In this document: in pieces, positions 8,205 through 9,527 of the stretch | How the letters are laid out: each line of letters begins with the position of its first letter | Position numbering within the stretch: the stretch's first letter is position 1 | Source of the DNA: an uncultured Chlamydiae bacterium | GTDB lineage: Bacteria; Chlamydiota; Chlamydiia; Chlamydiales; SM23-39 | Assembly: GCA_963828125.1 (NCBI GenBank) | Contig: CAWHDP010000002.1 | Coordinates: 1,408,001-1,472,000 of the forward strand | DNA: 64,000 bases | Direction: 5' to 3' | Translations under genes and position numbers: made by a program | The notes under the pieces: model-generated | What the model saw: only the letters and a program-made list of their open reading frames with translations | Told to the model about the DNA's origin: nothing | Databases searched by the model: none

Positions 8205-9527
8205 ATGACTGCTCAGGATAGAGTAGAGAAACTCCATATTGAGGAAGCGGTCAGCTGGCAAAGCCCTCTCTGTCCCCAAACAATCGGCGAGAAGGAAAAA
8301 ATGCAACTGAAGAGAGCTATGGAAGCGGTTCCTGGACAAAGAATCGATTGGATTATCCTTCCTCTAGTTACAGAAACATGGAGAGAGAGAAGAGAAGAAC
8401 TGCTACAACCGGCCCATTCTAGAAATCGGCATCGAACAGAATTGATCATTGACATCGAACAGTTACATGCAAATCCGACAAACGCCCTCAATCAACTACT
8501 CGAGCAATTCGAGGAGGATGACGTTTTCCCACTGATCAGATATCAGACTTCAGCAGGAATAGACCGTGTAGGAGTCGACGCTGGCGGCATATCCAGAAGC
8601 TTCGTCTCAGATCTCATGAAAGCCCTCTGCCATCCGAATCCGCCGAATCAACGAAAATTGCCGATGACGGATACCGAAAAAGGTTTAATACCGAAAGTCA
8701 ACCACTCGCGTGAACTCCCATCCTACCGATCTATCGGAATGATTTGCGCCGCCGCATTGGATGGCTTCCAAAACATACTCATAGGGCATCGCTTTAACCC
8801 TACCCTCTTTCAGATGATCTACGCTCTGACTCGAGCAGAGATCACCCAGCTTCCTGCCAATCTCAGCCGCCCTAGCGATATCCCTCAAGCCATTCAGAAT
8901 AAATTATTGAAACTCTATTTTAAATCTGAGCTGCGCTTAGTTTTTGGCCCCCCCGATATGACAGAGGAAGATCTTGACCTTGCAATTCATAATTTTGTGG
9001 AGAGAGATGTAATAAACGAATGGATGAAAGACATTTCCTCAATTACAGATAAAACCACATTTTTATCCGAAAGAGAATTAGATCGGATCTTATTAGCTAC
9101 TGTTGTCATCGGACAATCGGTGCAGCAAAGAATAGAGGAACCTCGTCTGTGGGACACGGTCAAAGGAACTTCTGCAAAAGAATTCCAGAAAAAAATAGAA
9201 GGCTCCCTCTCAAAGGAGTTAGTCATGGCAGCTTTAAGCTGCCAAGAACCCGACGATCTAAGAATGAATTTTGTCAGGCAATGGATCAATGACGCAACAA
9301 TGGAAGCATTGGAAAATTTTGTCCTTTGTATCTCTGGCTCTACCACCTTGACAGAGGAGCAGACCTTAACTATCAACCTACAAGCGGCCAGTTCAATATG
9401 GCCGACATTTCACACCTGTTCTTTTACAATGGACGTACCTAGATATGACACTTACGAAGTATTTAGAAACAACTTACATGCATCGATTGCATATATTGTA
9501 GCAGGCAACAGCATTGGCATGGCCTAG
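8205..9527 (+). CDS. HECT-domain E3 ubiquitin ligase-like protein (candidate effector)
   Basis: GVDAGGISRSF (HECT N-lobe GxDxGG), LENFVLCISGS and WPTFHTCSFTMDVPRYDTYEVFRNNL (HECT C-lobe, Cys codon 9417-9419). Start uncertain: the ORF opens at 8097 and runs through the palindrome. Confidence 0.85.
   Translation: MTAQDRVEKLHIEEAVSWQSPLCPQTIGEKEKMQLKRAMEAVPGQRIDWIILPLVTETWRERREELLQPAHSRNRHRTELIIDIEQLHANPTNALNQLLEQFEEDDVFPLIRYQTSAGIDRVGVDAGGISRSFVSDLMKALCHPNPPNQRKLPMTDTEKGLIPKVNHSRELPSYRSIGMICAAALDGFQNILIGHRFNPTLFQMIYALTRAEITQLPANLSRPSDIPQAIQNKLLKLYFKSELRLVFGPPDMTEEDLDLAIHNFVERDVINEWMKDISSITDKTTFLSERELDRILLATVVIGQSVQQRIEEPRLWDTVKGTSAKEFQKKIEGSLSKELVMAALSCQEPDDLRMNFVRQWINDATMEALENFVLCISGSTTLTEEQTLTINLQAASSIWPTFHTCSFTMDVPRYDTYEVFRNNLHASIAYIVAGNSIGMA

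Follow-up and report, generated by a model that had tools for sequence, protein, structure and literature searches.

Whether a chlamydial chromosome carries a true eukaryote-type HECT ubiquitin ligase, and whether the gene in its present form still yields a working effector, are the questions raised by an open reading frame at positions 8205..9527 of the 64,000-nucleotide stretch of chlamydial DNA analysed here (the window; genes and their parts lie on the forward strand unless marked otherwise). From the ATG at 8205 the frame gives a stop-free translation of 440 aa, the HECT-family protein P0001. A preliminary description of the locus had taken it for a horizontally acquired HECT that works in the host cytosol with host E2 enzymes. 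To judge from the sequence comparisons below, the explanation that best accounts for the whole is that P0001 belongs to a family of secreted ligases that work with host E2s and has lately lost its N-terminal part, a joint reading that is held here with moderate confidence.

The catalytic domain

On sequence and model together, residues 79-440 of P0001 form a complete two-lobed eukaryote-type HECT domain, and its canonical HECT fold is close to certain. The motifs that first drew attention to the gene are in the reported places, with GVDAGG encoded from 8571, LENFV from 9309 and Cys405 from 9417, the cysteine standing 35 residues from the C-terminus and the last four residues being IGMA. The N-lobe (residues 79-333, 8439..9203) contains the G-x-D-x-G-G-x-x-R motif at 8571, and the C-lobe (residues 334-440, 9204..9524) is matched both by Pfam and by the structure of the E6AP C-lobe; the HECT domain sits at the extreme C-terminus of the protein. 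The catalytic Cys405 (9417..9419), part of an FHTC motif, and likewise Gly333 are invariant in the 120 sequences aligned from among the best 150 relatives, and the cysteine is also kept in 132 of 133 sequences of a second set. The Pfam HECT profile (PF00632) recognises P0001 with E 2.8e-8 and 34.2 bits against a cut-off of 23.9, the match spanning residues 360-430 only; NCBIfam has no match for the protein. The region preceding the domain, earlier put at about 120 aa, is in fact about 78 aa long, with the HECT fold beginning at about residue 72-79.

A single-sequence search of the PDB gives seven weak matches, all of them eukaryotic HECTs (E 0.01-1.2), and a family profile reaches 79 sequences at E<=1, the best at E 2.1e-28 with both lobes aligned; the best 60 of the 79 are all eukaryotic HECT ligases, including HUWE1, WWP1 and E6AP. 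An hhalign comparison with HECW1 likewise gives a probability of 98% over 300 columns. The predicted model of P0001 (mean pLDDT 88.5, pTM 0.82) has the two-lobed HECT fold and superimposes on the HUWE1-ubiquitin conjugate with Z 22.0 and an rmsd of 4.0 over 302 residues, and its C-lobe on that of E6AP with Z 15.8 and an rmsd of 1.5 over 100 residues. All 50 rows listed in the fold comparison are eukaryotic HECTs, Foldseek returns 102 matches at E<=0.001, and the language-model features of the protein lead to HECT clusters with a score of 0.95. The identity to eukaryotic HECTs in the structure matches is just 11-20%. SopA and NleL do not appear among the fold matches listed for the model, the rows being filled by eukaryotic HECTs, which leaves room for a weaker match, and no Pfam match to beta-helix (beta-strand) repeats of the SopA/NleL type is found in P0001, whose N-terminus is helical in the model. 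The earlier assignment to the eukaryotic kind of HECT, as opposed to a mimic of the SopA/NleL type, is thus borne out by clear homology.

Two parts of the domain depart from this conservation. Residues 228-290 (8886..9074), which are all-helical in the model, occupy the place of the small subdomain that, from eukaryotic HECT structures, we take to bind the E2. The region is the least conserved part of the domain, with a mean top-residue frequency of 0.25 versus 0.36-0.43 elsewhere, and in the family its length between flanking anchors varies from 33 to 154 residues. The second is the residue at position -4 from the C-terminus, Ile437 (9513..9515), which is Phe in most relatives: among 144 proteins with the Cys motif, 100 have Phe and 8 have Ile. 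The replacement of this Phe, noted previously as a possible cause of altered or reduced activity, is real, but it is not a private decay of this gene, since P0002, P0004 and P0008 also have Ile and the change appears to be a subclade trait; P0003 has Gly. Because the Ile is common to close orthologues, it is older than the truncation of P0001 described below. The F849A variant of E6AP is reported to keep the thioester and to lose chain elongation and K48 specificity (PMC6463701), and by analogy with these tail data the Ile subclade may make short or mixed ubiquitin chains.

A chlamydial family and its origin

The sequence comparisons place P0001 in a large and apparently undescribed chlamydial HECT family, rather than making it a one-off transfer. 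A word-based homologue search with P0001 finds only the protein itself, and an exhaustive search finds 366 relatives at E<=0.001, of which 180 remain at E<=1e-10, counted as 50%-identity clusters. With the Pfam HECT profile, 64 of the phylum's 401 genomes give a match, 49 of them above the cut-off, and none of 14 control genomes does; a profile built on 45 short members finds the family, at E<=1e-8, in 87 of the 401. Counted over good-quality genomes the figure is 68 of 335, over genera 61 of 212, and over the families listed 18 of 30. The proposal of horizontal acquisition therefore stands insofar as the gene is eukaryote-derived, but not as a single acquired gene, since it is a member of an old phylum-wide family. 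The family profile finds mostly one to five matches per genome, with 0/30 in one taxonomic family and 4/90 in another, and among the matches listed an internal stop is seen in one only. The Cys motif is present in 37 of 38 genome-derived frames, chosen by HECT-type searches, the exception being cut by the end of its locus. A motif scan over all species genomes gave five loci from 26 matched stretches, three titled Chlamydiota or Chlamydiales and two uncultured bacterium, the pattern being narrow enough that the scan is no proof of absence from other phyla. Pattern scans with P0001 found nothing in genome or viral contigs, and neither plasmids, searched with P0001 and P0017, nor phages, searched with P0017, gave a match.

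The same data bear on the possibility that the gene is a eukaryotic or viral contaminant or a chimera. Its GC content is 44.7% as against 49.6% for the genome's ORFs (19th percentile), and no HECT gene lies within 1.5 kb of yqeY, the upstream neighbour, in any of 12 genomes of the genus (0/12). However, the window lies within a 1.92-Mb contig of a 2.37-Mb, two-contig genome that is 95.4% complete with 0.94% contamination, the gene has no introns, its nearest relatives are chlamydial, and in run X1, possibly the source of this DNA, it shares a single contig with the downstream bacterial gene. Moreover, yqeY has different neighbours from one to another of the 12 further genomes of the genus and therefore marks no conserved locus. 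Family members also occur in single-contig genomes (G053, G205, G233 and G252) and are flanked by bacterial genes in G197, G205, G044 and G060. The X1 contig, the spread of the family and the tree described below together largely refute contamination, the probability of which is negligible, and the HECT gene is accordingly placed in the chlamydial chromosome.

The family shares its catalytic domain and varies in what precedes it. Pfam HECT is seen in 49 of 59 relatives scanned, which carry N-terminal DUF4116 (11), LRR (5) or Sel1 (1) modules, and other relatives have N-terminal helical repeats of 35-36 aa. The distance from the cysteine to the end has a median of 35 in 145 family proteins compared to 32-33 in 12 eukaryotic HECTs. 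A second family member in this genome is full-length, a 1006-codon frame (C2:1125948-1128965) with an intact Cys that keeps the -4 Phe; it makes a better assay subject than P0001. In the single-contig genome G205, three copies stand in tandem (L206:1310-8830), two of which keep the Cys while the third is without it.

The remodelled and poorly conserved E2-binding region counts against reading the family as ligases, and would suit proteins that keep the HECT fold yet capture or deplete ubiquitin-loaded E2s, or serve as decoys for the partners of host HECTs, rather than modify substrates. The variable -4 residue and the one Cys-less copy would also agree with such a role. On the other hand, the cysteine is near-invariant, its spacing to the end resembles that of eukaryotic HECTs, the -4 Phe is mostly kept, and exchangeable repeat modules suit a ligase with substrates, all of which makes a trap or decoy function improbable. 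By analogy with the eukaryotic enzymes, the family members are likely to be active host-directed ligases.

In a tree of 72 rows, a branch (SH-aLRT 93, not starred) separates the 53 family rows, whose origin is known or presumed to be chlamydial, from 12 eukaryotic and 7 giant-virus rows; the tree comes from a quick search and has several long branches, and its eukaryotic sample consists of HUWE1- and NEDD4-type sequences only. It is consistent with one old acquisition of the HECT domain by chlamydiae. The tree sets the chlamydial rows apart from both the eukaryotic and the giant-virus HECTs and points to no particular donor; none can be named given the quick tree, its long branches and its restricted eukaryotic sample. 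The giant-virus HECTs lie outside the chlamydial group on very long branches, and a sister relation is neither supported nor contradicted by the tree. It has been proposed that chlamydiae and giant viruses exchanged genes (PMC6050620), and the tree leaves that route undecided. One giant-virus group (L051, L064, L066 and L069) has the GIDAGGLTRDF motif common to the chlamydial family, and has STC instead of HTC and no -4 Phe. Ubc4/UBE2D-like E2 enzymes are encoded on many giant-virus contigs (L085-L164).

Taken together, we lean towards regarding these proteins as the first real bacterial lineage of eukaryote-derived HECTs, which would have arisen by one old acquisition followed by duplication and loss across the phylum, and would comprise hundreds of diverged members with exchangeable targeting modules, a rebuilt E2-binding subdomain and -4 variants that may set chain types.

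Two breaks in the gene

The three closest relatives of P0001 (P0002-P0004) are 912-950 aa long and 46-52% identical to it. P0002, the closest orthologue, carries the NCBI name hypothetical protein (Chlamydiales bacterium), and its gene lies in G197, a genome from the same taxonomic family. All three contain helical repeats of 35-36 residues, which in the P0002 model fold into an extended array of helices; a fold search with this full-length model is filled by HECT matches, and the Atlas has no usable feature match for the repeat region of the orthologue. A repeat profile from P0002-P0004 finds nothing in this genome at E<=0.01, the remnant in P0001 included. Against P0002, the 476-codon frame to which P0001 belongs aligns in two pieces, at residues 110-195 and 564-950. 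The first piece ends in an N-terminal helical-repeat stump of P0001, residues 1-58 (8205..8378), that corresponds roughly to P0002 residues 133-195 (E 1e-15, 43% identity over 86 columns) and has low model confidence. It is followed by the approximate internal-deletion junction and a linker (8379..8438), where about 370 aa of the 35-36-aa repeats are absent in frame relative to P0002. Contigs of run X1 and of run X2, which is from the same study, cross this junction without differences; the small shares seen in runs X3 and X4 are not taken as evidence of habitat. The region before the HECT domain is thereby 75 aa in P0001 versus a family median of 343. The remark in the preliminary description that no substrate-binding module can be recognised at the N-terminus is right for the stump, but at the same place the orthologues keep a helical-repeat solenoid.

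The second break lies upstream of the ATG. The sequence at 8161..8204 appears to be a coding remnant, homologous to what precedes the corresponding Met of P0002-P0004: its 14 codons (8163-8204) score 13 against P0002, a value reached by 0.19% of 20,000 random frames, and 1 and 1 against P0003 and P0004 (3.4% and 3.9% of random frames). As homology continues upstream of it, the ATG at 8205 corresponds to an internal Met of the longer orthologues, in which 132-203 residues precede the matching position. Judged by these alignments, P0001 is without some 118 N-terminal codons, which would have been lost at a 48-bp repeat immediately upstream (8113..8160), where the homology stops. The repeat is a REP/MITE-like palindrome with 20-bp arms and TATA ends. 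Genome-wide it is dispersed over 98 merged loci, a match of at least 40 bp occurring at 52, and it was not seen at the yqeY loci of the 12 genomes of the genus.

Several further observations concern the repeat itself. It occurs in the window at 8113-8160, 17519-17566 and 62474-62521, the second of these copies adjoining a long, divergent thymidylate-synthase-like ORF of 387 aa (17613-18776, reverse strand). Longer variants of 76-83 bp have another hairpin within them. Of the 52 near-full copies, 6 are embedded in frames that run for at least 200 codons without a stop, and at least three other palindrome families recur in the genome. Rfam has no match near its gathering score for the repeat, and a role of the hairpin as the terminator of yqeY was rejected, since it is a dispersed repeat and was not found in the terminator scan.

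A repeat of this kind could also have misled the assembly, in which case the 5′ truncation would be a misjoin and the true gene longer. No contig crosses the whole repeat, the X1 records ending at 8139 and beginning at 8136. However, the X1 depth is similar on both flanks (14.7 and 12), and the missing first ~110 residues of P0002-P0004 are matched by tblastn nowhere else in this 95%-complete genome, so that a misjoin is very unlikely.

The repeat amounts to 16 codons and the frame is open back to a GTG that overlaps the stop of yqeY (GTGA), therefore a product of 476 aa (8097..9527) reading through the repeat is possible. The yqeY gene (7669..8100) may provide both read-through transcription and a coupled start, and by eye no ribosome-binding site is present at the usual spacing from the ATG at 8205. 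The alignment of the repeat-encoded codons with P0002 was rejected as chance, being reached by 2.6% of random frames and unseen with P0003 and P0004. With either the GTG at 8097 or the ATG at 8205 as its start, P0001 may function as a minimal ligase that is still exported and has no substrate arm of its own; it would then elongate chains, ubiquitinate itself or be directed by a partner, for example the full-length paralogue. Neither break shifts the frame, and short frames occur elsewhere in the family (381 aa in G195 and 396 aa in G068); 80 aa or fewer precede the HECT domain in 12 of 119 relatives, some of which are fragments. The HECT domain of P0001 likewise has no excess decay, with departures at 5 of 39 conserved columns compared to a family median of about 6, and an end branch of 0.40 compared to 0.34, 0.43 and 0.52 for the orthologues. 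From sequence, this undecayed state fits either a recent truncation or continued use. The copy of the palindrome is, however, identical to many others, thus the 5′ loss looks recent and the absence of decay says little. The lack of a visible ribosome-binding site at the usual distance from 8205 also speaks against a minimal ligase, which, with the N-terminal compositions considered next, is a possible but rather unlikely reading.

Export, proposed action and known ligases

Export of the family proteins would be by type III secretion, directed by a signal at the N-terminus. The genome encodes SctN and SctV above the cut-off and an SctS/FliQ-family gene, together with four near-full ATP/ADP-translocase genes, as expected of an intracellular chlamydia. 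The fraction of Ser, Thr, Asn and Pro in residues 2-25 of the family is 0.319 (n=99), and 1,184 ORFs of this genome have 0.214; at residues 101-124 the excess is small (0.218 versus 0.200). The comparison sets many genomes against one and is a proxy for, not a predictor of, secretion. Both candidate N-termini of P0001 have 0.208, like the background, and so neither shows the composition of the family, which weighs against a minimal ligase that is still exported; in its favour, the N-terminus of the 476-aa form is low in charge (0.083, 6th percentile of the background).

In the host, the N-lobe would take a ubiquitin-loaded host E2, and the Cys would receive the ubiquitin as a thioester and hand it on to proteins of the host, or to bacterial effectors, bound by the N-terminal repeats, an E2-to-Cys-to-substrate scheme as described for eukaryotic HECTs (PMC11354881). 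The present copy would have lost most of its solenoid by the in-frame deletion, and its native start and signal region at the 48-bp repeat. Action in the host cytosol with host E2s, as first suggested, is accordingly a fair proposal for the family and a doubtful one for this gene, because its native 5′ end is lost. The catalytic domain of P0001 is still intact and would probably work in vitro, and on balance the sequence evidence suggests that this copy is not a working effector. More likely it is not exported, and would then be idle in a cell without E1, E2 or ubiquitin. No match to E2 (PF00179) or ubiquitin (PF00240) was found in the genome, a weak result as the controls are equally blank.

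Compared to the eukaryotic HECTs (HUWE1/Tom1, NEDD4/WWP/ITCH/Smurf/Rsp5, E6AP and UBR5; PF00632), the chlamydial family has the same two lobes over about 300 aligned residues, the G-x-D-x-G-G motif in the N-lobe, the HTC motif in the C-lobe with the Cys about 35 residues from the end, and a C-terminal position behind variable modules. It differs in residing in a bacterial chromosome, in its low identity, in the variable and, in the model, all-helical small subdomain, in the -4 Ile of the P0001 subclade, and in its modules, which are chlamydial repeats, DUF4116, LRR and Sel1. The giant-virus enzymes are likewise divergent canonical HECTs in parasites of protists, but stand outside the chlamydial group. 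SopA, NleL and PvHECT are also bacterial two-lobed Cys ligases with a C-terminal catalytic part behind substrate-binding repeats and a presumed use of host E2s; however, these enzymes are described as unrelated to HECTs and as having beta-strand repeats (PMC13720258), whereas the chlamydial family is homologous to HECTs and has helical or LRR modules. A precedent by description is MavJ (Lpg2498) of Legionella, reported to be remotely similar to E6AP by HHpred and to be ubiquitinated in transfected cells (PMC5819833, PMC7542358); it is known by this remote similarity and a cell-based signal (PMC5819833) and is set beside the chlamydial family by description only. The review of 2026 (PMC13720258) continues to recognise no HECT in bacteria. 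Within the phylum, the NEX/PEX proteins (F-box, BTB, RING/U-box; PMC4209131), members of which are reported to carry type III signals, and the Simkania SneRING proteins (PMC12591485) are similarly multi-copy, eukaryote-like ubiquitin-system families evolving by birth and death, but are described as adaptors or RING-type ligases.

The literature search, whose scope did not extend to most subscription journals or to supplements (those of PMC4209131 and PMC12591485 could list such genes), found no description of a chlamydial HECT family. The term HECT is absent from the main text of PMC4209131, on chlamydial ubiquitination families, no chlamydial HECT is named in the available parts of PMC12591485, on the Simkania RING, or PMC4327156, on the evolution of the ubiquitin system, and a term check of PMC8003559, PMC6557245, PMC3673628, PMC10877369 and bioRxiv 2025.05.29.656868 gave nothing further. 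A 2026 review states that bacterial counterparts of HECT, RBR, RCR and RZ ligases are yet unidentified and that unrelated transthiolating enzymes have evolved in bacteria instead (PMC13720258). For HECT, a family in about a fifth of the phylum's sampled genomes would overturn this statement, and the known chlamydial set of F-box, BTB and RING proteins would gain a catalytic class. The novelty is not complete, given the MavJ report and the automatic Pfam tags that already assign PF00632 to these proteins. The family domains, of about 360 aa and intron-free, are suited to standard assays, and the differences that occur naturally in the E2-binding region and at the C-terminal tail offer a panel for the requirements of HECTs and the setting of chain types, while the P0001 locus provides an example of the decay or remodelling of such genes.

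The surroundings of the gene were considered for a functional link. Downstream lies a ShlB/FhaC-type outer-membrane transporter gene (9568..11208); a two-partner-secretion relation was rejected, P0001 having no passenger-type domain. Farther along the window, two adjacent ORFs of 2343 and 2567 aa (37381-44412 and 44366-52069, reverse strand) have a GC content of 55-61% and no Pfam match. Upstream, divergent from yqeY, a 924-aa inverse-autotransporter-like protein with a beta-helix passenger is encoded at 4762-7536 on the reverse strand.
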